Shown here piece after piece: positions 4,515 through 61,621 of a DNA stretch of 64,000 nt. Location: the NCBI GenBank assembly GCA_951406725.2, contig OX597835.1, forward strand, positions 9,548,001 through 9,612,000. Reading direction: 5' to 3'. The stretch's first letter is position 1. Each line of letters starts with the position of its first letter. The notes under the pieces were generated by a model. The model was not told the DNA's origin and searched no databases. It worked only from the letters and a program-made list of their open reading frames with translations. A program made the translations under genes and the position numbers. The DNA is from Octopus vulgaris. Lineage: Eukaryota.

Positions 4515-4808
4515 CGCATATATATATATAAATTAGAAAACCCCCCCACCTTTTATCAATTCAAAATGAACGATTAAATTACACCATCTAGAAAATTACA
4601 TATAATAGAAATATTAAAATTAAAATAACAATAAAATATCAATAATTAAGTAAATTGCAAAAAATTGATATTGTGTGAAATCTGATTTTGTATTTCTACA
4701 TTGAATTTTTCTCCCTGTAATTTTGGATTAATATTCCCTCAAATAATAATTATTATATATATATATAGGTGAGAAAGTTGGTGTGTGAAAGCACGTGGTT
4801 GGATATAT

Positions 4809-5157
4809 AGAGAATAGTAAAAGGTGAAGAAACTACAGAAGGCTTGTTTTATAAGGTAAAAGAATATATTTAAGTTGTTATGTTAGAAGAATGTTATAAA
4901 ATGTTTTCATACAGTGACATAGTTTTTGAAGAAATTACCGGTTTCGTGTTAACTTTTCAAATTTCTCAAGTGTCTTTACCTACATCATGTTATGTCTTCG
5001 TTATGAAGGGCACTTCATAACGAAGACATAACATCTTCAAAAACTATGTCACTGTATGAAAACATTTTATAACATTCTTCTAACATAACAACTTAAATAT
5101 ATTCTTTTACCTTATAAAACAAGCCTTCTGTAGTTTTTTCACTTTTTACTATTCTCT
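4809..5157. mobile_element. Fold-back (palindromic) PLE/retrozyme-like element between microsatellite tracts
   Basis: The arms are reverse complements around a hairpin with loop ggca (5009-5012). The left arm carries an HHR; the right arm lacks that segment. Confidence 0.75.
4926..4969 (-). ncRNA. Minimal type I hammerhead ribozyme, U3-A8 core variant
   Basis: Minus strand: ttgagaaat TTGAAAA gt-taac-ac GAAA ccgg TA atttcttcaa; identical to the copy at 8296-8339. Confidence 0.65.
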
Positions 5158-5170
5158 CTCTCTCTCTCTC

Positions 5171-5223
<53 letters not shown>

Positions 5224-5229
<6 letters not shown>

Positions 5230-5655
5230 GGACTGAACACGAAAAGTGGACAGTCAACATGCTAGATATAGACGTCAAATCGTCATTCTCCACAAAGAGT
5301 ATGTTCTCAAATAAAACTCAGCACAAAACATTATTATTATCCGCAAGGATAAACTGTAATTACAGTTTATCCTTGCGGATAATAATAATCGAAACTGATT
5401 CAGTACATGGGTAATTATTTTATTTCGTATATTTTCATTTGTCTTGTTTAATGCTTTGGCTTTGTGCTGAGTTTTATTTGAGAGCATACTCTTTGTGGAG
5501 AATGGCGATTTGACATCTATGTCTAGCATGTTGACTGTCCACTTTTCGTGTTCAGTCCTTAATTGGTATATAAAAATATTTTAATCTTCGGATTCTTTTT
5601 AATATGCTAGACCACTGGTTTTAATTGACTAATATCAATTTCTACCCTTAATTAA
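5224..5655. mobile_element. (TA)n-embedded fold-back element with about 104-bp inverted arms and a 60-bp perfect palindrome
   Basis: 5224-5327 is the near reverse complement of 5461-5564. 5330-5389 (attattattatccgcaagg...ccttgcggataataataat) is self-complementary. (TA)n lies on both sides. Confidence 0.75.
5369..5412 (+). ncRNA. Degenerate minimal hammerhead-like motif
   Basis: atccttg CGGATAA taataatc GAAA ctgattcag TA catgggt: stem I 6/7 paired, good stem III, two core mismatches, stem II decayed. Confidence 0.4.
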
Positions 5656-8104: not shown

Positions 8105-8243
8105 GAACATTAAGATGTTCGTAGCTTTATAATATACGTGATGTATGGCTACGAAGTTTTGTACTCTACACGCCGAGAATAAAAAGGTTAAACGTTTTAA
8201 ACGTTTTAAATGTCCGAAGCCAATAGTGTCTGCAATACGAAAT

Positions 8244-8495
8244 GTTATGAAGTGCCCTTCATAACGAAGACATAACATGATGTAGGTAAAGACACTTGAG
8301 AAATTTGAAAAGTTAACACGAAACCGGTAATTTCTTCAAAAACTATGTCACTGTATGAAAACATTTTATAACATTCTTCTAACATAACAACTTAAATATA
8401 TTCTTTTACCTTATAAAACAAGCCTTCTGTAGTTTCTTCACCTTTTACTATTCTCTATATATCCAACCACGTGCTTTCACACACCAACTTTCTCA

Positions 8496-8568
<73 letters not shown>

Positions 8569-8745
8569 ATTATTATTTGAGGGAATATTAATCCAAAATT
8601 ACAGGGAGAAAAATTCAATGTAGAAATACAAAATCAGATTTCACACAATATCAATTTTTTGCAATTTACTTAATTATTGATATTTTATTGTTATTTTAAT
8701 TTTAATATTTCTATTATATGTAATTTTCTAGATGGTGTAATTTAA
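8244..8745. repeat. Near-identical inverted duplicate of 4574-5021
   Basis: The reverse complement matches by eye throughout, apart from the length of the internal (TA)n tract. Confidence 0.9.
8296..8339 (+). ncRNA. Minimal type I hammerhead ribozyme, U3-A8 core variant
   Basis: Stem I ttga-gaaat/atttc-t-tcaa, core UUGAAAA (8305-8311), stem II GU-UAAC-AC, GAAA, palindromic stem III ACCGGU, predicted cleavage GUA| after 8329. Confidence 0.65.
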
Positions 8746-9039
8746 ATGTTTACATTGTATTCGATGCATTCAGTTCAATCGTATGAGACTCTCATCTCCA
8801 CTTTGCACGCCTATAATTTCGTTAACTGCACTCAATTCCCAATACTTTCGCCTTCATTCAATCGTTCGCTCGGTTAATTGAGTCACTCTCTACATCACTA
8901 AGACACATGTGCAAGTATTACATTAAATATTTCCTCACTACAAATACAGTTAAATACACAGAGCTGATTTTTCTTTCCTTGGTTAGATTACTTGCCGCAA
9001 GCAAGTGTCCTTTACAGTGGGACGATATTCTTATTCTCA

Positions 9040-9428
9040 GTGGAGGCGCAATGGCCCAGTGGTTAGGGCAGCGGACTCGCGGTCATAGGATCGCGGTTTC
9101 GATTCCCAGACCGGGCGTTGTGAGTGTTTATTGAGCGAAAACACCTAAAGCTCCACGAGGCTCCGGCAGGGGATGGTGGTGATCCCTGCTGTACTCTTTA
9201 ACCACAACTTTCTCTCACTCTTACTTCCTGTTTCTGTTGTACCTGTATTTCAAGGGGCCGGCCTTGTCACTCTCTGTGTCACGCTGAATATCCCCGAGAA
9301 CTACGTTGAGGTTACACGTGTCTGTGGAGTGCTCAGCCACTTATACGTTAATTTCACGAGCAGGCTGTTCCGTTGATTCGGATCAACCGGAACCCACATC
9401 GTCGTAACCGACGGAGTGCTTCGAACCA
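9040..9428 (+). mobile_element. Full-length tRNA(Arg-like)-derived SINE family C with 13-bp TSD
   Basis: tRNA-like head (tggcccagtggtt...ggtttcgattccc); TSD attcttattctca at 9027-9039 and 9429-9441; highly similar copy at 56124-56507. Confidence 0.92.
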
Positions 9429-12550: not shown

Positions 12551-13024
12551 ATCTGTGTGTGTTTGTGTGTGTGTGTGTGTGTGTGAGTGTGTGTGTGTGA
12601 GTGTGTGTGTGTGTGTGTGTCTATATTTGTTCTCCCGCTATCGACTGACACACAGAGTGTGATTTAGACCAGTCGAACAAAAGACGGCTTTGAGGGTCAA
12701 GCAGACGAGAATAATGGGTAATGGTTAGAAAATGTCTTGAAGGATGGAGGACGGAGAGATAGAGAATTTGCGAATTCTCAGCTCTGAGAAAAAAAGAAAA
12801 AGGGGGACTGGGCGTTGGTCACTTGACAGCAGCAGGCATAGGAGAAAGACAGGATTTTTTTTTTTAATTTGTGTTTCAAGAAAAAGAAACTCACATGCAC
12901 ATACACATCGCATGTCCGATTATAAACGTATTTATCGCTGTATCTTTTTATGGTCCTCTTCTGGCTTGTAAATGGCCTCCACCCTGGCTTGACAATGGCC
13001 TGGCAGAGGAATGTAGTTAAGTAG

Positions 13025-13145
13025 AGTACATCAGCCCCAGTGCTCAACTTGTACGTATTTGATCGACCCCGAAAGAATGGAAGGCAAAGTCGGCTTCTGT
13101 GGAATTTAAACTCAGAACAAATGGACGGACGAAATACCGCTAAGC
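13025..13145 (-). mobile_element. SINE family B fragment
   Basis: atcgaccccgaaagaatggaaggcaaagtcgg...gaaataccgctaagc matches the reverse complement of the family B core. Confidence 0.75.
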
Positions 13146-14054: not shown

Positions 14055-15062
14055 GTGCATGTATGTATGTATGTATGTATGTATTGTGAGAGAGAGAGAG
14101 AGTCCATATATGTCTATATGTAAAATGATAAGCGTATATTTGTGTTTTCTCAGAAAACTTGGATTGAGAACTTTCCGTTATATTTATTGATGTTTTCTTG
14201 TTTTTATTTTGTCATATTTACTTTTTATTTTGTGCTTCTTATTTTCCCTCCTTCTTAAATCTTATATTTTACGTTCGTTTATTGTCAGTATTTATTCTTG
14301 AGCGTGTATCTTCTAACTTTTTGTATTTGTTTGTTACTATATTTTTTTATCTGTTTGCTTCTATATTTTTCACTTGATAAGACACGAATCGTCATTGATA
14401 AGGTAAGCCTAAAATCAATAGATACATGATCGACACATCTTTGAAAATATTTTCCCATAATCCCCGATTTTATCATGGCCGTTCATAGGTGCAAATCTAC
14501 AATTTTACATTTTGTTTTTCGCGAGTGATTATGTAGCTTATTCATGTTCTAATTGTTATTTTACTAATACGAAGAACGATTGTAAAATATTCTCAATTGA
14601 CTGATATATACACTTTTCATTCAGAAACTACAAGCCTAGCTTAACCCAGATGAAGTGATGTTGTGAAGTTGATCTAATCTAGCATGTTACCCGTCCTTAT
14701 TCAATTGTAGCTCGAGACAAAATTATATTTACTCGTGAAACATGAAATCAGGAATGAGAACAGAAATAAACATTTTGTATAAAGTGACATCTCTCTACAT
14801 ATATATTTACCTCTCTCTCACTCTGCATATAGGGAGACAGACAGAGACAGATATACATATATTTATGAAAACAGGCACACACACACACACAAATGCACAA
14901 ACACACTAAAATACTCTCCTTCTCTACCCCACCTTCATGTGCCATGCCTCCACATCACAGCAAAATAGACCTCCATATCCAAGTCAGAGACCACATTATT
15001 TATCTTCGGGAACATACTACAATGTCTTCCCTTTGTCTTCTGCTTTTGCGGTATAATAATTA

Positions 15063-15299
15063 AGGCGGCGAGCTGGCAGAAACGTTTACACGCCGGGCGA
15101 AATGCGCAGCCATATTTCGTCTGCCGTTACGTTCTGAGTTCAAATTCCGCCGAGGTTCACTATGCCTTTCATCCTTTCGGGGTCGATAAATTAAGTACCA
15201 GTTACGCATTGGAGTCGTTGTAATCGACTTAATCCGTTTGTCGGTCCTTGTTTGTCCCCTTTATGTTTAGCTCCTTGTTGGCAGTAAAGAAATAGGTAT
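15063..15299 (+). mobile_element. SINE family B (tRNA-derived, central domain resembling the Meta-SINE domain)
   Basis: aggcggcgagctggcagaaacg...gagttcaaattcc (B box)...gcctttcatcctttcggggtcgataaattaagtaccag; many copies in the window. The Meta-domain assignment is from recall. Confidence 0.88.
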
Positions 15300-16105: not shown

Positions 16106-16440
16106 TATATCTGTCTTGAATTCTGTTATTTCAGCTATTTCAATAAGTGAGGTCTGGATCCAAAGGCATTGACTCAATATGTGTCTTAACAGTAACCTGG
16201 TTTCGATTCTAAGTTGTTTCAAGTGCACACCATTTGCACGAACATTCGGAACAAACACCGGAACAATACAATTTGCGCTGATACAATACCTTCAAACATA
16301 ATAATTATCATACACACGAACGCACAAACACATGGATGTGTGTGTCAGTATGTGTGTGTGTGCGTGTGTGTAATTTGATTAAAATGTCCTGCACAGTAAA
16401 TTGATTCAACCCTTCTTATAAAATAGACTCCACCACCCTC

Positions 16441-16865
16441 TTTTACTCTTTTTTACTCTTTTTTTCTTGTTTCAGTCATTTGACTGCGGCCATGCTGGAG
16501 CACCGCCTTTAGTCGAGCAAATCGACCCCGGGACTTATTCTTTGTAAGCCCAGTACTTATTCTATCGGTCTCTTATGCCGAACCGCTAAGTGATGGGAAC
16601 GTAAACACACCAGCATCGGTTGTCAAGCAATGTGCTAGGGGGACAAAAACAAACACACACACATACATATATATATACAGTATATATATATATACATATA
16701 TACGACAGGCTTCTTTCAGTTTCCGTCTACCAAATCCACTCACAAGGCATTGGTCGGCCCGGGGCTATAGCAGAAGACACTTGCCCAAGATGCCACGCAG
16801 TGGGACTGAACCCGGAACCATGTGGTTGTTTAGCAAGCTACCTACCACACAGCCACTCCTGCGCC
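16441..16865 (-). mobile_element. Full-length SINE family A with internal (TA)/(TG) microsatellite
   Basis: Head at 16865, internal microsatellite at about 16650-16700, and an (agtaaaag)-type tail at 16441-16470. Confidence 0.92.
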
Positions 16866-18099: not shown

Positions 18100-18430
18100 T
18101 TGGGTCATCCCATAAATAATGCGCTTGTTTCAGTCGCATGAACTAGAAGTCGGAGGGGTATGGGATAAACTATCTGCATCAACTTGCTATAAAAGAAAGT
18201 AGTAATTTTACCTCGTCAGTATTCTTAGTGCTATTTTTCAAAGCTGTAATGGAAGTGACAAAGAAGCATATTCGGCATATTTTGCTTTATGAGTTCAATA
18301 AAAGCAACGACGCAACGGAAAGTGTGAGGATTCTTAATGAAACTATTTTATCGATGGACTTAATCGTATTCCACCCAGTGAAGCCCCAGCAAATGGATGT
18401 TGCTGAAAAATATTTAACTAAAGAGTAGTT
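18100..18430 (+). mobile_element. Internally deleted mariner relic (5' TIR plus transposase N-terminal HTH)
   Basis: TA|ttgggtcatcccataaataatgcg end; from 18249 MEVTKKHIRHILLYEFNKSNDATESVR, typical of mariner N-termini; no right TIR seen. Confidence 0.75.
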
Positions 18431-23417: not shown

Positions 23418-23770
23418 TTTGCGATCGCTGCTTTTTTTTCTGCCGCTGCTACAACACTTTTCCTTTCTAAGTCTTCCGTTACCACGACAACCAATATTTA
23501 ACATTAACACTAAATTTACAATAAAATAAAAGAAAAGCAAGCAACACGGTTTCGGACAATCAGCTGAAAACCGATGGGGTTTGTTGTTGTTATTCTTGTT
23601 GTTGTTGTTCTGGGGGTCTCTAGACTGGAACTAATGGTGTGGACGTTAATCAGAAGCATTACATCCGGAACAAGCCTGTCTGTTTTATCATCCACTCTAT
23701 TTAGAATATGTCCTTCCTCTTCATCGTCGGTTGGATGCGACGTGAAGGAGATTTAACTGTTATTTAAGCA

Positions 23771-23958
23771 GGCGTAGGAGTGGCTGTGTGGTAAGCAGCT
23801 TGCTTACGAACCACATGGTTCCGGGTTCAGTCCCACTGCGTGGCAACTTGGGCAAGTGTCTTCTATTATATAGCCAAGGGCCGACCAAAGCCTTGTGAGT
23901 GGATTTGGTAGACGGAAACTGAAAGAAGCCCGTCGTGTATATATATATATATGTGTGT

Positions 23959-24000
<42 letters not shown>

Positions 24001-24200
24001 CTGTGTTTGTATTTGTCCCCCCAACACATCGCTTGACAACCGATGCTGGAGTGTTTATGTCCCCGTCACCTAGCGGTTCGGCAAAAGAGACCGATAGAAT
24101 AAGTACTGGGCTTACAAAGAATAAGTTCTGGGGGTCGATTTGCTCGACTGAAGTCGGTGCTCCAGCCTGGCCGCAGTCAAATGACTGAAACAAATAGAAG
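23771..24200 (+). mobile_element. Full-length SINE family A
   Basis: Head ggcgtaggagtggctgtgtgg, internal (TA)(TG) tract, 3' end ...gcagtcaaatgactgaaaca. Confidence 0.92.
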
Positions 24201-25042
24201 AGGATACATTGATTGCTCTTATTGTTGTTGTTGTTGTCGTTGTCGTTATTGTTGTTGCTATTGTTGTTGTTGATACAAGGTCAGAGTTGGTTATGCATCG
24301 TTGTTGTTGTGAGGTCAGCCTCTATCGAACCATTCCAACCGCGACCATCGATATTATCGTCTAGTTGTGAACTACGACTACAATGTCCAATATGTCCCTC
24401 TACTTTTATGACGAATTGGTGTGAACTAACAGAGACTGGTGTTACTTAAAGGTCACATGACAAGCTAGTCTTGTTTATCGACTTTCTGAGCAGTAATACG
24501 TCACAGCAACTATGTTACTTCCGTGGCCATCACCATGGACACTCATATTTAACATTAAAATGTGTTGTAGAGAATTAGTAATAATGGTACACTCCTACCA
24601 CACGACGAATGGAATAACCTAGTCACTATAAGTAAAGAGAAGTACCTGAAGTGCCAGAGTACGTAGTAGGAGGTCAGAAATAGTCGTGTCTCTACTATTC
24701 TTACTAAGTATACTGTATACCGAAGTGAGCGTTATAATAATCCGGCATTTTTAGGGTACAACAGTAAGGCCATCCCCTCGAAAGAGCAGCATTAGTTGAT
24801 TCAATTCAATCCCCTCCTTAAGACAAGATATTTTCCATACAAGCAGTCCCAAACCACAGGGATGCATAGAAAGAATATATTTTGTTAAAAAATGTCTTTT
24901 TCTTTCATTGTCTACGGCAGTGTGCAAACGTAGTTTTGCATTTTATATGTATTACATTAATAATATGCTCGTATTAATTTTCATTCCTAATTTATTGACT
25001 ATTGCAGTCTGCCGGGTGTTTTTGCATTACATACATACTACA

Positions 25043-28615: not shown

Positions 28616-30165
28616 AAATCGAAAAGTAAGAAATATCAAAGGATGTACACGGGAAATGCATTTTCTTGGTGCTCCTAATAAGGTGCGAAAAAGAGTGGGT
28701 GTATAGCATTTCATGCATGCTTCTTCGTCAGAAAGACTCGAGAGGAAATGTCCAGAGACGGAAATGTCTTGGCAGTAAATGTAGGAGTGCCCAGCAACGA
28801 TCACAGATTAAAGCTCAGTTTCGCTTTCTCATCTTTATTCTAGATTAATGTCGTTCTTCTGCGAGTATTTCAAATATTTCTACGAATGTAATTTGAATAT
28901 TTGTAGACAATTTGATGAGCGAACGGGTGGCGGTTTGATTCAGACCAGTGAAGGTTATTTTATCAAATGAAGACTTTGGGTATTTTTATGTCGTCAGAGT
29001 ACCTTTTCTTGTCCATGGTGCACATTGCGTAAATGATGTAACGTTGCCCTGACATGTGTATGGCCTGATAATGCGACTAATCATTCCCAATCGTCCAATC
29101 AAGCTATCAGATTTGATTTAAACAGTCAACGATCACTTCAGGTGTCTCAATTTTGGTTATGTTCTCTTTTACCTTTACAAGTCGACATGCATTAATATAA
29201 TGGCTTCACTGTCGAAGCGGATTTGAAAAGTAGCGAAAACAAGAATTATATCATAATTGTTTGACCATAAAATGCTTCTTGTATCCGGGGACACATTTTC
29301 TTAGCAACAGCAATTTTATTTTCAATGGAGTATATTCAGTGCTTCCCAACATTTATTACTGGATTATGACCTCAAACACTTTCACGAGAACAAAGGCTTT
29401 GTCCTCCTCTCATTCACCAAAATGGTCTACTTTACTTTCACTCACGTTTGATTTCATGTTTGTAGGCGCAAACCGTTTAATGTTAGAATTGGGATGAAAT
29501 GAAGAGTTGCTTTTGTAGGTTTTGTCCAAGTAGAGTTCTTTCGGGAATATAGTAACTTCTGTCAGGTGTGAACACGCAGCACTATCACATGCATTTTAGG
29601 AGCCAGGAATTTATTTACATTTTCTAACATATTTCGTATAGCTTCTTGTATAGAATAGTGCGACCAACTCGTCCTTGTAACTTCCTGAAGCATGAAACTA
29701 TATCTCTAGATAATATCCTTTTATTAAAGAATACAATATATATTCTATATTGCAGAATATGTGCTTAAAGAAGTATCTTATGTTCCAAAACTCTGTTGAT
29801 TTATGTTAAGATCTTTATTTTCGTGTTCGCTATTAATTTCATATAAAATCATTTCTATAAAGTGTTCGGAATTTTGTTTGCCAGGAGGTAAAATAGTTAA
29901 TAGTGACTTTCTACTCAATGTCTGACCATAGAGCGTGTGAGAAAAATCTTTCTAATATAAAACACGCATGTGGAGAACTAGCGGCGTTACAACTTGACAA
30001 CAGCATTGTTTTTGAATAGGATCCGAGACTTTTACTCCTTGTTTAACTTTCTGACAGGCAATGATGATATCTTTCCCTATAAATTCAATACCGCTATTTA
30101 TGTCTGTATTTTTCTTTACTTCAGTTACGTCAGAGATTTTAAATGAACATCATAAGAAATGATGA

Positions 30166-31366
30166 AAAAGAGATTATATGTTTTCCTTTCGGGACACATT
30201 ATTCATTTCTTAAGCACCATGTTTGAATGACGTATTTACCTGTTACAAGGAAACTGTTGACAAACAGAGGTGTTCGTTTTCTTTTTCTAACAAAGATGTC
30301 AGCGGCCTTTCGGCCTTTTCTTTCTTTTATATTGTATCCTTCTTCCTTCTTATTTATAAAACTAGACATGTTTTGTCATTTGCATAAGATTATTTCGAAT
30401 TCTCCAATTATCTCTTTCATGCCTTCGTTTTCATAACTTGATGGAAATTCCAATTTAGATTAGGTTCAATACAATTATTATAGATTCACCCTCTTAGAAA
30501 TTCACACTCAAAGTATTTACTCGATGTATTTAATGTATTTAAATTGTACTTTCCCAAAGTACTGTCGGCAATTTAATTCAAATTTGCACAAGCTTCTATG
30601 GTTTCTAATAAAGAGCGGAAGACTTCACTTTCGATTACAAATCGTGGCTGCCTGGTTGAGTTTATTTTATTTTGATCTCGTTAAGAAAATCGATGGAGCC
30701 GAATGAAGATATATTTCCCTATAAAGTCAATCCCGCTATTTATGTTTGTAACTTTTTTTTTTTACCTCAGTTACGTCAGAGATTTTAAATGAACATTATA
30801 AGAAATGATGTAAATGAAATTATATGGTTTCCTTTCAGGGCATATTATTCAATTCTTGCTCACGACGTCTGAATGACGTATTGGATGTCAAAATATATAT
30901 CCACATCAGTAAGGATATTTTGCAACAATATGCTGCAGATTGCATTGAGGGTTTTTTGGTGAGTTGTTGCGCGATCCTGTGTAATTTGAATGCACCTTGA
31001 GCCCGGACATTTCGCCTGTTAAGTTATGGAGTGTTCATGTTGTTATTAATTATCTATAATAATTGTTATTAATTATCTATAATTGGAATTTCAATCAAGT
31101 TATGAAAACGAAGGCATGAAAGAGTTAATTGGAGAATTCGAAATAATCTTATGCAAATGACAAAACATGTCTAGTTTTATAAATAAGAAGGGATAAGGAT
31201 ACAATATAAAAGAAAGAAAAGGCCGAAAGGCCGCTGACATCTTTGTTAGAAAAAGAAAACGAACACCTCTGTCAACAGTTTCCTTGTAACAGGTAAATAC
31301 GTCATTCAAACATGGTGCTTAAGAAATGAATAATGTGTCCCGAAAGGAAAACATATAATCTCTTTT
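30166..31366. repeat. Inverted repeat pair of about 300 bp (30166-30485 vs 31052-31366), overlapping an older direct repeat (30066-30238 vs 30708-30882)
   Basis: Direct comparison; also visible as the near-identical 69-aa ORFs at 30227(+) and 31309(-). Confidence 0.9.
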
Positions 31367-32749
31367 ATGGTATTTCTAATTTGGATATAACCAAAAAGAA
31401 TCTTGTAACAATAAGTTGAGATGTGATCACAATTTTTGTTAAATGGGGAAATACATGTAATGAGAAACCTTGGTCACAAAACAGGGGAAAATCTGCAAAT
31501 GGATTTGCATGCGTATCTTTCATGAATATACATTTATCTTTGTTGTAAAAATTCGCTACATTAAATAACTCACCATGACGCCTGCCTAAATACTATTTTG
31601 CAATGGAAAAACAAAACAACCTTTGCATTTTTATATGCAAAATCATTTGCAAATTTGATATATACTCAAAAGTATTCATAAATTTCTATCCTTTTGTTAC
31701 AATATTCTTCTGAATAATCTTTTGAATAGCCTTAAACCTCAACTGTATTCAATATAGCGACATTGTTTTAAAGTATTTAACTATAATACTAAATGATAAG
31801 ACTTCCCCTGTTTCATTATCAATAGTCTGCTAGTGGACAACCCCTTAATTATCAGCTAACATCTTGTTTTAAGTTTTCCCTTACTAAATCTCAGGACATT
31901 GCTTCTAATAAATCTTGATTTTAATGATTATACCATCTAGAATATCTGTCTACTCCCTCAACCCTACCCCCGAACAAATACTGCCCTCTGTTTCTCTCAG
32001 CGTTAAATATACAAGGGATTTGATAAACTAGTCTATAAATTAAAACGGACCCTATGAAAAAACAAAAACATCAGTGAGAGACAGTGTCCCCTTGAAAATT
32101 TTAGTTATGACTATGCTGTTGTAGGTACAACATGTTCTTTGTATATCTTCTTAACCTCTTGGAGATTCTAGGTTTAATTATACTAATGTGTCCATCTGTT
32201 CTAATTCAATTAAATTCTATGTCTTTCTGCAGCTTAAGATTGCTCTACATTTCAAATTGATGTAATGATTGCATTGTTCAATTAAATGGGGTTGCATGAA
32301 ACGCAGTCAAATGGTTGAAACAAATAAATGAATATAAGTATACATATATTTCGTCCCACGCCGGAGCATGCTACAAGTCTATGATGTGTGTCAATGAATG
32401 GATGTCTTGTATAAGAATGTACATAATATACGAATGCATTTGCTTCCGAAGAAGTCAAAAAGAAGACGACAACAACAACAACAACAACAACAACGGCAAC
32501 AGATGGAGAAGATGTTGGAAATGAACATGAAAAAATGTAACTAAAGCCTTAATGAGGAGATATTCAGATGTAAGTCATTGTATATAATGTGTGGAATATA
32601 ATGATACGACGCCATAAGTCTACGCTAGAAATCCCTAGAAGTATGAGGAGATGCCTTCAGGGAACGAAAATTAAATATTCACTCATAGGACATATTTATA
32701 CAGCTAAATCATTAATAAGTATACTACTACACAAATGTAGATCGATAGA

Positions 32750-33435: not shown

Positions 33436-34144
33436 ATCTATATATCTACCTCCCTCTCTTTCTCTGTTTCTCACTCTATGTGTGTGTATATTTTAGACAA
33501 TGCCTTAAAAATCCAATAATTGTTTCCTGTCCATTTACAGATGTATTCATTTTTACATCTGCCCTCTTACAACCTGTGCAAATGGAGTATAATAACAATA
33601 ATAACGATAAGCAATTACCTCCCCTTATTTTTCCACTTGTGAAGTCATTCACTCGTAAATATCATCACACACAACATGTTGCATCTCGTCAGGTTACACG
33701 TTTTGTATAAGATACTTTGCTATACATACAGATTTTTGCTAAGCATATTGTAGTCGAGTCAGTATAGCAAATATCCTACAGGTGACCACAACATACCAAG
33801 TGAAAATCAGTATATGAAACGAAGTATCTTATTTAAAACATTCAGATATGCAACCTGTTAGTATGGATGCAATTGCAATATCTCACCCGTAAAGGACAGA
33901 CGCAGGACGCGTCGTAACGATCGTTGGGTTGAATAAAGATTCTTGCTAACTCCATTTTCTGTTTCCCCCCATTCCTTATAAACGCAACAAACACTGCAGA
34001 ATTCTTGTAGTTCCATTGACAATTTGCCACAACCGTAGATAACATCATGTAGCCTAAACGGTGAAAGTGCTTTAATCGGCATACTACTAGACATCTACCC
34101 GAAGTCCAAATAATTATATATATAATTAATAATTATATATATAC

Positions 34145-34472
34145 CTTATAAAATAAAGGCAAAAGAAAAAATTCTAATGTCAAATATGCCGAAAATAGAC
34201 AAATTGTCAATAACCATTATAATTTATTACAATTAACATGCGTTTCGAAACAAGCCGATAGAAATTCCTAGAAAATTCCGTTATTACTGTATTGGTCCAA
34301 ATTTCAGAGTTAATTCATAAAAATTTTCTCCTCCTCGGCGATAAATACGTAAGACATAAATAAAATACTTACTCATACCCATGGAAAAAGCAAGCACTAA
34401 GAACTAAGTACCCCAAAATATATCCACAATAGAAAATCTTCAGCACATCTCGAGACACGTGCGATTCGAACT
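34145..34472 (-). mobile_element. Diverged copy of the 464-bp HHR-bearing pLTR/retrozyme-like unit
   Basis: Colinear with about 39717-40036 and ends in (TA)n. Confidence 0.8.
34284..34344 (-). ncRNA. Type I hammerhead motif, diverged (CCGAGGA core)
   Basis: ttatcg CCGAGGA ggag-loop-ctct GAAA tttggaccaa TA cagtaa; stem II covaries relative to the 40303 copy. Confidence 0.55.
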
Positions 34473-34574
34473 ATATATATATATAATACAAAATACAAGG
34501 TAAAAATTATATACTTTGTATTAATTGGTTTTCCACGCTAGCTACTTGATAAATCTTATATAGATTTTATCCTC

Positions 34575-39666: not shown

Positions 39667-39714
<48 letters not shown>

Positions 39715-39838
39715 ATTTACAAGATAAGGGCAAAAGAAAAATTCTAATGCCAAATATGCCGAAACAAAATATTGTCGATAACCATTGTAATTTATGCGTC
39801 TCGAAACAAACCGATAGAAATCTCTAAAAAATTCGTTA

Positions 39839-39899
39839 TTACCGTATTGGTCCAATTTTGGGGTTAATTCATAAGACATTTTCCCCTCTACAGCGGCAA
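39839..39899 (-). ncRNA. Type I hammerhead motif, core-mutated copy
   Basis: ttgccg CTGTAGA gggg-loop-cccc AAAA ttggaccaa TA cggtaa: stem I fully paired, but A6U and G12A changes. Confidence 0.55.
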
Positions 39900-40302
39900 A
39901 CACGCGAGATATAAGTGAAATACTTACTCATACCCATGGAAAAAGCAAGCACCAAGTCCAGAGCAGACCTAAGTACCCCAAATATATCCAAAATAGAAAA
40001 TCTGCGGCACATCTCGAGACACGTGTGATTCGAACTAGAAACTTTCACAGAGTTACAAAATCCGTGAGTGAACACAATTCTATTTATAATTAATGTAGGA
40101 TCAAATTTCTTTCGGGAAAAAATTTTTATCAATGGCCAGCATATCAAAAAATACCTTCAAAGGTTAAATTTATAAATAATTTACAAGATAAGGGCAAAAG
40201 AAAAATTCTAATGCCAAATATGCCGAAACAAAAACTTGTCGATAACCATTGTAATTTATGCGTCTCGAAACAAACCGATAGAAATCTCCCAAAAATTCGT
40301 TA

Positions 40303-40363
40303 TTACAGTATTGGTCCAATTTCGGGGTTAATTCATAAGAAATTTTCCCCTCTTCAGCGGCAA
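40303..40363 (-). ncRNA. Type I hammerhead ribozyme, canonical core
   Basis: ttgccg CTGAAGA gggg-(19 nt)-cccc GAAA ttggaccaa TA| ctgtaa; all core nucleotides present, one stem I mismatch; predicted cleavage between 40309 and 40308. Confidence 0.8.
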
Positions 40364-40423
40364 ATACGGTAATAACGAATTTTTTTAGAGATTTCTATCG
40401 GTTTGTTTCGAGACGCATATATT

Positions 40424-44033: not shown

Positions 44034-44440
44034 AGGAGTGGCTGTGTGGTAAGTAGCTTGCTTACCAACCACATGGTTCCGGGTTCAGTCCCACTGCCTG
44101 GCACCTTCGGCAAATGTCTTCTGCTATAGCCTCGGGCCGACCAAAACCTTGTGAGTGGATTTGGTAGACGGAAACTGAAAGAAGCCCATCGTATATATCT
44201 ATATATATGTATATATGTATGTGTGTGCGTGTTTGTGTGTCTGTATTTGTCCCCTTAGCTTTGCTTCTCAACCGATTCTGGTGTTTTTATGTCCCCGTCA
44301 CTTAGCGGTTCGGCAAAAGGGACCGATAAAATAAGTACTGGGCTTACAAAGAATAAGTCCTGGGGTCGAGTTGCTCGACTAAAGGCGGTGCTCCAGCATG
44401 GCCGCAGTCAAATGACTGAAACAAGTAAAAGAGTAAAAGA

Positions 44441-44443
<3 letters not shown>
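44034..44443 (+). mobile_element. Full-length SINE family A
   Basis: Head, internal microsatellite and (agtaaaag)n tail all present. Confidence 0.92.
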
Positions 44444-56123: not shown

Positions 56124-56507
56124 GGAAGCGCTCCGTCGGTTACGACGACGAGGGTTCCGGTTGATCCGAATCAACGGAACAGCCTGCTCGTGAAATTAAC
56201 GTGTAAGTGGCTGAGCACTCCACAAACACGTGCACCCTTAACGTAGTTATCGGGGATATTCAGCGTGACACAGAGCGTGACAAGGCCGGCCCCTTGAAAT
56301 ACAGGTACAACAGAAACAGGAAGTATGAGTGAGAGAAAGTTGTGGTGAAAGAGTACAGCAGGGATCACCACCATCCCCTGCCGGAGCCTCGTGGAGCTTT
56401 AGGTGTTTTCGCTCAATAAACACTCACAACGCCCGGTCTGGGAATCGAAACCGCGATCCTATGACCTCGAGTCCGCTGCCCTAATCACTGGGCCATTGCG
56501 CCTCCAC
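56124..56507 (-). mobile_element. Full-length SINE family C with 13-bp TSD
   Basis: TSD tcatctcctcagt at 56111-56123 and 56508-56520. Confidence 0.92.
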
Positions 56508-57167
56508 TCATCTCCTCAGTACCTTAGCGGCAAAGCTTACTCCGAAAATTAGACATATCTTGAAGTATCAGAGTTCCAAGATGAACACCGGGTAATACGT
56601 ATAATTTGACGCATTAAATATTTATCTTGCTAAACGTTTATCAGCATTGAAGGTTTGAACGGTCTGTTTATGAACGGTCAACTTTGTGTAAGAAAGCTAA
56701 GCTTAAATCTAAGGATATAAAACAGGATTACAACTGAGGGAATGAATTCTGTAAGAAGTGAAACTCTCTTTTCAGAGTTGTCGAAGCACAATCGAATTAT
56801 TGATAAAAAGCTTTAGTGAGGTGCATAAATTGATAATTGATTTATTTCTATGTCCCTTGTCAATTATCATTTATGAACACAATCAATTCCATTATATAAC
56901 AATAAATCTATTTTATCATACCCTGAAGAAACATAAAATTATCATCCGAATTTGAGATGAGAAATCTGGAAATAACTTCTCTAGGGTAGAAAGTCACGTG
57001 TTGTGTTTTTCTTTCATATTTTACAATAAAACAACTCCCCTGTTCACTCTCATAACACAGACCAATGCTCACAATGTTGCACACTCATAATCGCACATAT
57101 ACACACACGCCATGCATGCGTAAATACACACACACACATACATACATATATATACAGAAATGCATAC

Positions 57168-57447: not shown

Positions 57448-57598
57448 GTGGAGGCGCAATGGCCCAGTGGTTAGGGCAGCGGATTCGCGGTCGTAGGATC
57501 GCGGTTTCGATTCCCAGACCGGGCGTTGTGAGTGTTTATTGAGTGAAAACACCTAAAAGCTCCACGAGGCTCCGGCAGGGGATGGTGGTGATCCCTGC
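57448..57598 (+). mobile_element. SINE family C, 3'-truncated
   Basis: Matches 9040-9190, then breaks at atccctgc. Confidence 0.88.
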
Positions 57599-57762
57599 AG
57601 TGGTCTCAATACAGTGCCCTGTGGAACACCACTAACCATTTGTGTTTGTTTTTCTTTTTAGTTGGCTCCATTGGCCACTACTGCCTGTCTTCTATCTTTC
57701 AGAAAGTCATGTAACCATTCTCCAAGTTTTCCAGCTATGCCGAGATCATGCAGTTTGTGGCA
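57599..57762 (-). mobile_element. CR1-group LINE reverse transcriptase fragment
   Basis: CHKLHDLGIAGKLGEWLHDFLKDRRQAVVANG, then a stop/frameshift, then TQMVSGVPQGTVLRPL (the SGVPQGxVLGP motif). Confidence 0.85.
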
Positions 57763-58010
57763 CGCTACGATATGCAAGAGAATGAATACATAAAACAAAA
57801 CAATAGAAATCTGCACATGCACTAAACACATACATATCTACATGTGAATATAACCTGTTTGTGTTGTTGAAATCCCACTGACGGAACATTGGATCTAGGA
57901 TAGAAACCGGGTCTTTCTTAATTGGCAAGAAATCTTAAAATAAAACCGAATAATGACATTCATACATGAGTTTGTACGTCCGTATTTACGTTGATATTTC
58001 TGAAATAGTA

Positions 58011-58407
58011 AGGCGGCGAGCTGGCAGAAACGTTAGCACGCCAGGCCAAGTGCTTATCGGTATTTCGTCTGCCGCTACGTTCTGAGTTCAAATTCCGCCG
58101 AGGTCGACTTTGCCGTTCATCCTTTCGGGGTCGATTAAATAAGTACCAGTTATTCACTGAGATCGATGTAATCGACTTAATCCGTTTGTCTGTCCTTGTT
58201 TGTCCTCTCTGTGTTTAGCCCCTTGTGGGTAGTAAATAAACAGGTATTTCGTCTGCTGCTATGATCTGAGTTCAAACTCTGCCGAGGACGACTTTGCCTT
58301 TCATCCTTTCGGATCGATATATTTAGTACCAGTTGCGTACTGGGGACGAGTCTATCGACTGGTCCCCTCCCCGCAAATTTCCGGCCTTGTGCCTACAGTA
58401 CAAAAGA
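58011..58407 (+). mobile_element. Dimeric SINE family B with degenerate 16-bp TSD
   Basis: The core is repeated from about 58243 with a different tail; atatttctgaaatagt (57994-58009) vs atatttctaaagtagt (58408-58423). Confidence 0.88.
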
Positions 58408-60289: not shown

Positions 60290-61394
60290 GTGAGTCGCGT
60301 AAAAGTCCATAAGTCCGGAAAAAGATTCGCATATACACACATACACACACAAACACATATACATATATTATGTAACTGCCCAACACCAGCTCAGGTGTTT
60401 CTAGCTCGTTAACACATGTTCAGAGGTGAAGCTGTTCTTTCAGAAATATTGCGCAATATTTTATATATAAACCGTTCTTATAAAAACATATTAGAAATGC
60501 AAAAAAAAAAAAAAAAAAAGAAATATGAAAATAAAAAGCCTCCTTTTGATAACGTATTTACCTAATTTAACACTCTAAAAGAAGACTATTATTGATTTTT
60601 ATATATTGGATGTTATAATAGAAATATCTTGCGAGAGAACAATAACAGACATCTATGTGGAGAGAATGAGCGAATGAGAGAGAGAGGGTGAGAAAGAGAA
60701 AATCACACAGAAGAGGAGAATACATGATTAATATCTTTATCTCTTGAGTAAATAGTTTAACCGTGAAATGAACCATATGAGATACCTTCTCATTGCTTAC
60801 TCTGAGTCATTCTCTCTTCCTTCTATTGTTTGCCGTCTAGATATTTCTGTTATTTCATACATTCTTATAAAAAAATCAATAAAAGCATTCATCCCTTATA
60901 TAGTAAATTAGGTAAATCTGTTAGTATTTCATATCACATCCAATATTATGCATTCATATTTTAACTTGCATTATTCACCTGTTGCTTTTTTTCTTCAGTG
61001 ACTTACATATATTCTATGAAACATTTTTGTAAAAGTTAGCTTGACCTTAGAATATGTGTTAAAAAACAACAACAACAACGCTATAAATGACAGACGTCGC
61101 CATCTGCAATAAATGTAAGACTTCCCATTCACCTCCTGTTCGCCGATTATTGCGGCGAGTATCTCATTGGGTTTAGGACTGACCACAAAACTAACACTGA
61201 CGCTAATCAGGAAACAACAAATCCTTGCATCATGCTCTCTGATTCTATCTTTGGCAGGTTTTATACTTCGGGTTTTCTGCCACCGCAAAGCAAAAAGCCC
61301 TCAGGGGTTTTCTACCCAGCACCACTAGAGTGAATAACGCATCCTCTTGTTCTCTGGGTACAGTTTTGGAATTGCCCTGCATTCTAGAAATATC

Positions 61395-61621
61395 TATTTC
61401 TTTATTACCCACAAGGGGCTAAACATAGAGGGGACAAACAAGGACAGACATAGGTATTAAGTCGATTACATCGACCCCAGTGCGTAACTGGTACTTAATT
61501 TATCGACCCCGAAAGGATGAAAGGCAAAGTCGACCTCGGCGGAATTTGAACTCACAACGTAACGCAGACGAAATACCGCTAAGCATTTCGCCCGGCGTGC
61601 TAACGTTTCTGCCAGCTCGCC
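61395..61621 (-). mobile_element. SINE family B with 9-bp TSD
   Basis: agaaatatc at 61386-61394 and 61622-61630. Confidence 0.92.

Follow-up and report, generated by a model that had tools for sequence, protein, structure and literature searches.

A motif of 44 nt at positions 8296–8339 of a stretch of Octopus vulgaris DNA (64,000 nt in full, hereafter the window) has the architecture of a minimal type I hammerhead ribozyme with U3-A8 where the textbook core has C3-G8. The motif belongs to a dispersed repeat family. This family probably represents the pseudo-LTR region at the 3′ end of a Penelope-like retrotransposon. On this reading, to which we give a probability of about 0.65, the motif is a conserved U3-A8 minimal hammerhead whose predicted cut, after position 17, is slow and occurs only in a dimer. 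The U3-A8 core is rare but has been published before, and the motif adds one more case to an established kind of hammerhead.

Anatomy of the motif and chance controls

The motif is built from the following parts:

8296–8339 (+), minimal type I hammerhead, copy A, by sequence and descriptor match
8296–8304 (+), 5′ strand of stem I, nine Watson–Crick pairs with 8330–8339
8305–8311 (+), core U3 U4 G5 A6 A7 A8 A9 (UUGAAAA), by sequence
8312–8319 (+), stem II with a 4-nt loop, G10.1 (8312) pairing with C11.1 (8319) and U10.2 (8313) with A11.2 (8318)
8320–8323 (+), G12 A13 A14 A15.1, sequence GAAA
8323–8328 (+), palindrome ACCGGU, predicted helix III of the dimer
8327–8329 (+), triplet GUA, with U16.1 and A17 at its end
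8329–8330 (+), A17 and the predicted cleavage site (8329/8330); A, C or U in the repeat family
8330–8339 (+), 3′ strand of stem I with U8335 bulged, in a shifted register also pairing with the core

Every part named in the sequence-only reading of this DNA was found at its place. The core is that of a type I hammerhead—a Watson–Crick 3-8 pair, GAAA, and U16.1 followed by H17—in its U3-A8 variant. Helix I is open at both RNA ends and has a pair adjoining the core (nine pairs in all, with one bulge). For helix II, the letters of the closing G10.1-C11.1 pair are present, but the second pair is broken in 24–48% of family depth, and the predicted pair probability in the monomer is 0.05. The sequence of the motif contains no stable monomer helix III, only two pairs around a 2-nt loop. 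Because stem II is too short for the usual contact between loop I and loop II and a stable helix III is lacking, the motif is minimal and not canonical. The earlier interpretation as a minimal hammerhead is supported by the type I architecture and by a core that is kept across the repeat family. Stem-loop II also contains a 6-nt palindrome, GUUAAC (8312–8317), which is lost in the loop II subfamily described below.

A strict descriptor—allowing all four Watson–Crick 3-8 pairs and requiring G10.1-C11.1 and a palindromic stem III—matches the window at two places only, the motif and a copy at 4926–4969 on the reverse strand that had escaped the sequence-only reading. In 60 block-wise dinucleotide shuffles, scored with at least five pairs in stem I and at least two in stem II, the same descriptor gave 0 matches. 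With a loose descriptor, which requires neither stem II nor the palindrome, the window holds 2 matches against 0.06 per shuffle when stem I has at least five pairs, and 3 against 0.83 when it has at least three (200 shuffles each). Rfam returned nothing at gathering score in the window and nothing at E ≤ 10 in 8200–8497, which agrees with the earlier expectation that standard CUGANGA searches would miss the motif. The minimum-energy fold of the monomeric 44-mer is not a hammerhead and is no more stable than shuffled sequences (z 0.06), so that folding energy alone gives the motif no support. Pattern scans with either core version of the motif, and with a 3′ stretch, found 0 matches in metagenome contigs, and a scan of prokaryote genomes also gave 0; in viral contigs, 16 loci match a looser pattern without stem I, the three checked have a stem I of 4, 0 and 0 pairs, and all 16 were left out of the argument.

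It is very improbable that a short tandem duplication of stem I 5′ strand and core in AT-rich DNA only mimics a hammerhead. The window has a GC content of about 33% and many microsatellites, the 9-mers at 8296–8304 (stem I 5′ strand) and 8305–8313 (core) are alike and compete for the same stem I 3′ strand, the loose descriptor finds its 0.06 matches per shuffled window, and the two copies in the window go back to one event. Such mimicry is hard to reconcile with the absence of the full descriptor from all 60 shuffles, with family variation that follows the hammerhead model, and with the presence of the same core in a published element (PMC4209133).

Copies in the window

Repeat comparison places the motif within larger fragments:

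8244–8497 (+), repeat fragment A with the motif, starting in a 9-bp hairpin (8244–8265) and running into (TA)n, putatively the 3′ end of a Penelope-like element truncated on its 5′ side
8498–8565 (no strand), (TA)34 microsatellite at the 3′ end of fragment A, the putative target
8566–8745 (+), second repeat segment, exactly common to A and B, set off from the first by (TA)n and without a hammerhead
4926–4969 (−), identical hammerhead motif, copy B, by repeat comparison and descriptor
4574–5021 (−), fragment B, the same as 8244–8745 in everything but TA-run length
5013–5174 (+), inverted arm C, followed by (TA)n

Fragment B and arm C are joined head to head by a perfect 22-bp hairpin (4987–5034). 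A gap of 55 nt in arm C takes out most of the hammerhead, and the sequence picks up again at the position that corresponds to 8334; a spliced intron was rejected as the origin of this gap, which has no GT..AG ends. The point of resumption, 5035, lies 4 nt past the predicted cut, as if a cleaved 3′ product had served as the template. This possible trace of RNA cleavage is a single event with no family depth step at the same place, and it was kept as a hint only.

Fragments A and B agree with each other at seven places (4812, 4823, 4829, 4858, 4876, 4903 and 4970) where more than 90% of the family depth has a different letter, and arm C carries the family-majority letter at two of the seven. Given these shared minority letters, the motifs of A and B constitute one observation, and the two window copies were discarded as independent support. 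One insertion likely gave rise to B and C together, and a later local inverted duplication of B would then have given rise to A. As motifs A and B lie on opposite strands 3.3 kb apart, they could not pair within one transcript. We infer that the window copies are truncated passengers.

Variation across the repeat family

Contigs of four sequencing runs (X1, X4, X5 and X6; four of the 24 listed) were compared with the window at 4540–5030, with at least 80% likeness required of a contig and 3% of depth for a variant to be listed. The runs were picked for four different organism labels and come from four studies; X1 may be the window's own sample. Matched contigs numbered 2691 in X1, 1943 in X4, 1935 in X5 and 726 in X6 for a stretch that includes the second repeat segment, and the depth over it is not a copy number. 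Their near-identical spectra mean that the four runs are not independent replicates.

The family is large, with a constant core and variable loops among the 40 of 47 variant rows listed. In these 40 of 47 rows, the variable places inside the motif are 4929, 4936, 4948, 4950, 4951 and 4952, and the core places 4954–4960 show no change. Place 4929 lies in stem I and varies in 2–14% of depth; places 4948, 4950, 4951 and 4952 make up loop II and U10.2, which are variable in the family. At place 4936, which is position 17, A is the commonest letter, with C in 21–39% and U in 8–21% of depth. The T>C tally is 3 per run and all three such changes are listed outside the motif, so that G8 and G17 both stay below 3%; the position-17 pattern (A, C and U, with G below 3%) fits the NUH rule. 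Since the only changes from C are one C>A and one C>T, at 4699 and 4711, G5, G10.1, G12 and both G's of the palindrome are unchanged. At 8295 (place 4970), the family majority is U, in 92–97% of depth, which would add a tenth pair to stem I. The sequence-only reading had proposed checking that U3 and A8 are fixed in the family. A8 is fixed at the 3% level, and U3 only probably so, since at least one A>G row lies outside the 40 of 47 listed and could be C3.

Listed variable places amount to 1 of 35 in core and stem I against 5 of 9 at the motif's unconstrained positions (p 0.0006 by Fisher's test, 40 of 47 rows listed); the same contrast would give p 0.098 if all seven remaining of the 47 rows fell in the constrained set. 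Compared with the 3′ tail (23 of 155), core and stem I (1 of 35) give p 0.086 and the core alone (0 of 17) p 0.13, both with 40 of 47 rows listed. In stem II, 24–48% of depth carries another letter at U10.2 with no matching change listed at its partner, leaving one pair. The changes at 4948, 4951 and 4952 occur at nearly equal depth (24–48%), which suggests a single subfamily that would have lost U10.2-A11.2 and would form stem II with a single G-C pair.

In the sequence-only reading, the joint change of positions 3 and 8 was taken to argue for selection on catalysis. What the family data support is a kept core in which, at the 3% level, G8 does not replace A8; the joint change itself is a comparison with the textbook core. 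No C3-G8 member was seen in the family, so that covariation is not observed within it, and as a sign of selection the 3-8 covariation was overstated. Relatives less than 80% alike are invisible to the comparison, and a C3-G8 sister family could therefore exist. The claim is further weakened in that each of the two core changes is a transition from GC to AT, in a window poor in GC, and that folding may offer a non-catalytic reason for A8, as set out in the next section.

These observations also bear on a reading, unlikely in our view, in which the motif is a non-cleaving hammerhead relic that master copies keep as a folded or protein-binding signal or by inheritance, with U3-A8 as a product of AT-biased drift. 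The direction of both core changes agrees with such drift, and the contrast between core and tail (p 0.13 for the 40 of 47 rows listed) is not significant. Moreover, the four runs show no depth step at the predicted cut: across the bins 4914–4930, 4931–4947 and 4948–4964, depth is 116k, 80k and 103k in X1, 14k, 12k and 12k in X4, 54k, 55k and 43k in X5, and 3.7k, 4.7k and 6.4k in X6. What a relic does not account for is that position 17 is A, C or U and not G, that loop II varies, and that the flanking core G's are constant—a pattern that fits selection on cleavage among the founders of subfamilies. U3-A8 cores are also stated to be active in vitro in PMC3088659, which cites earlier work.

Predicted misfolding and the U3-A8 pair

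Core and stem I 5′ strand closely resemble each other, and the 3′ strand of stem I is predicted to capture the core if position 8 is the textbook G. For the natural monomer, folding in three contexts gives probabilities of 0.51, 0.93 and 0.82 that G5 is trapped by this strand; G8 raises the monomer trap to P 0.99–1.00, with either C or U at position 3. When the sequence carries U8295 and C17, the letters of the family, trapping is 0.04–0.12 for the natural core and 0.95–0.99 for the C3-G8 form; two-strand folding agrees, with C3-G8 trapped at 0.95–0.98. The loop II subfamily is still trapped at 0.73–0.95 with A8. These values come from a folding model without tertiary contacts, and a contrast of this kind may arise in other hammerheads as well.

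On the strength of the model, a tentative and rather doubtful explanation would see U3-A8 as a remedy for misfolding. With G8, the trap between core and stem I would abolish ribozyme activity. First, A8 would weaken this trap; second, U3 would restore the tertiary pair. The residual trap would then keep single copies off, and two copies would refold into an active double hammerhead whose stem II has only one or two pairs. If this holds, the C3-G8 form would cleave worse than the natural variant. The assay put forward with the sequence-only reading is altered accordingly: C3-G8 may not serve as a positive control here.

Predicted dimer folding and proposed mechanism

With a loop of two nucleotides, helix III is not expected to close within one copy, which should therefore be inactive by itself. 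In a tandem transcript, two copies would join through ACCGGU, forming a six-pair helix III, and would swap their stem I strands. The tertiary contact usually made by C3-G8 would be made by U3-A8, and the cut after position 17 would be slow and would occur only in the dimer. Cleavage of this kind would process multimeric or tandem RNA of the element. The palindrome on which a dimer helix III depends is present as ACCGGU, and a dimer helix III arrangement has been described for metazoan minimal hammerheads (PMC4209133). Two-strand folding of the natural 44-mer yields the double-hammerhead helices, with P 0.97 for the palindrome and 0.95 for the exchanged stem I; about 10 flanking bases at either end lower these values to 0.37 and 0.28, and the form with the family letters U8295 and C17 gives 0.75 and 0.80. 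Predicted occupancy of stem I in the monomer is 0.06–0.47. By analogy with G17, which pairs with C3 (PMC3884650), A17 could pair with U3, yet A17 is the commonest letter.

Published minimal hammerheads cleave weakly even as dimers (PMC4209133). In the anole Penelope-like element PAc, the ribozyme cut in vitro and hammerhead mutants did not affect in vitro insertion (PMC11167929). Both results make a modest role likelier than an essential one. That the hammerhead is dispensable for in vitro insertion in another element speaks as well for a non-cleaving relic, as do the stem II of 1–2 bp without evident tertiary contact and the predicted misfolding of the monomer, in which the core is trapped with P 0.5–0.9.

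Comparison with known hammerheads

U3-A8 is not a novelty: natural cores of this type were reported in 2011 (PMC3088659) and, in 2014, in about 1,300 minimal hammerheads of Schistosoma mansoni (PMC4209133). Perreault et al. 2011 describe covariation from C3-G8 to U3-A8 in several natural hammerheads and find a two-pair stem II to be common and a stem II of one pair in one case (PMC3088659). Their tested one-pair example needs a pseudoknot for speed, and no such contact is evident in the motif.

Cervera and De la Pena 2014 report U3-A8 in Cercyon Penelope-like elements, with a dedicated descriptor that retrieves the S. mansoni motifs (PMC4209133). Like the motif, the S. mansoni Cercyon hammerheads are of type I with U3-A8, G10.1-C11.1 and a palindromic 15.2-16.2, and they occur, as here, as dispersed and mostly single motifs and as opposite-strand pairs. 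The row S. mansoni(4) of Fig. S3 has the same UUGAAAA core. Despite this likeness, several differences exist between the motif and the two S. mansoni U3-A8 rows shown: helix II has 4–6 bp there and 1–2 bp here, an extra nucleotide between 9 and 10.1 is present there and absent here, helix I has 3–4 bp there whereas stem I here has 9–10 bp with a bulge, and helix III is without an insert there and carries a 6-nt palindrome here. Among the rows seen of the 56 published metazoan examples in Fig. S3, helix II is longer than in the motif. The 2014 consensus comprises the extra nucleotide between 9 and 10.1 and a helix II of at least three pairs; the motif has neither.

Small Penelope-associated variants with a very short palindromic stem III and cleavage as dimers, as proposed here, are, according to its title and citing reviews, the subject of Lunse, Weinberg and Breaker 2017; that study may already cover the short-stem-II architecture of the motif. 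Searches of the literature on U3-A8 and on cephalopod Penelope hammerheads, mostly outside subscription papers, turned up no description of the family.

The carrier element

The shape of the family is that of a Penelope-like element—5′ truncation, an adjoining inverted truncated copy and a microsatellite target—which is suggestive and, taken alone, not diagnostic. Hydra-clade Penelope-like elements show 5′ truncation, adjoining inverted truncated copies and (TA)n targets (Craig et al. 2021, PMC8557442), and share with the present case (TA)n targets, 5′-truncated and inverted copies and, in addition, a palindromic helix III. In these elements, including Hydra-1_Obim, the hammerhead lies about 100–210 nt from the 3′ end; here, the distance from hammerhead core to fragment 3′ end is 193 nt. 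In contrast to the motif, the Hydra hammerheads listed there have CUGA cores and a helix II of 3–7 bp. Two family strings gave 0 matches to the Hydra entries of the PMC8557442 supplement, in which line breaks can hide matches, and 1 match to a Chlamys element that is unrelated. Upstream of the motif, the reading frame ends in MKCPS-stop, which loosely resembles the CxH end of Hydra-clade proteins but would need a frame change to fit.

A Pfam scan of the window's non-repetitive frames with at least 50 codons, covering the longest 145 out of 198, gave no match to a reverse transcriptase or GIY-YIG domain, as is expected for truncated copies. The Penelope-like identity is therefore read from shape. 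By analogy, the motif would work like a Penelope-associated minimal hammerhead; membership in this group is likely, and the assignment to the Hydra clade, and even to the Penelope-like class, is tentative.

Quite improbable, by comparison with the end of an autonomous element, is a functional hammerhead on a non-autonomous retrozyme-like or SINE-like element mobilised by Penelope-like proteins. No coding frame lies nearby, the family is known here over about 250 nt only, and depth drops off in the roughly 50 nt that precede the core; animal retrozymes have also been proposed as derivatives of Penelope-like pseudo-LTRs (bioRxiv 10.64898/2026.07.22.740005). However, head-to-tail tandem units with a type I hammerhead, the mark of non-LTR retrozymes, are absent from the window. 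The inverted 5′ arm and the (TA)n end fit ordinary truncated insertions, and the fall in depth may be an effect of the edge or of the hairpin.

Other repeats in the window

The second repeat segment (4530–4755 and 8566–8745) lies between TA runs and has a longer end in B. Its family depth peaks at 4557–4624, at several times the depth over the hammerhead, and fades inward, as the 3′ terminus of a different truncated retroelement would. A MITE-like element with terminal inverted repeats of about 108 bp and an inner palindrome (5226–5562) is located next to the (TA)n right after arm C. A further repeat family adjoins (TA)n at 34115–34473, 39685–40037 and 40165–40420; the descriptor finds no hammerhead in it, and one copy has a fold-back inverted arm at about 40363–40418. 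One repeat is present as partial copies in both orientations within 1.3 kb, at 30060–30882 and 31052–31380, where 30166–30485 and 31366–31052 are 95% alike. A young SINE-like repeat with a tRNA-like head, its copies 96% alike, is present at 9039–9422, 56125–56508 and 57448–57601, and it may resemble octopus SINEs. The frame at 18147–18425 (+) matches the HTH domain of the Mos1 transposase (PF17906, E 1.8e-07), a mariner remnant. Two abundant families of short repeats complete the picture, one at 875–1056, 16438–16865, 23770–24204 and 44034–44441 and the other at 13012–13145, 15061–15299, 58009–58250 and 61387–61621.

Implications

The finding is mostly one of annotation, in that it adds a hammerhead-bearing repeat family that is missed by Rfam and by CUGANGA searches, and one more lineage to the known U3-A8 class. 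If the form with a short stem II and U3-A8 cleaves, it would be among the smallest natural hammerheads. If C3-G8 performs worse in this context, a testable reason for natural swaps of the 3-8 pair would be at hand. The natural subfamilies, with A, C or U at position 17 and a stem II of one or two pairs, would provide a panel for asking whether Penelope-associated hammerheads are kept for cleavage.
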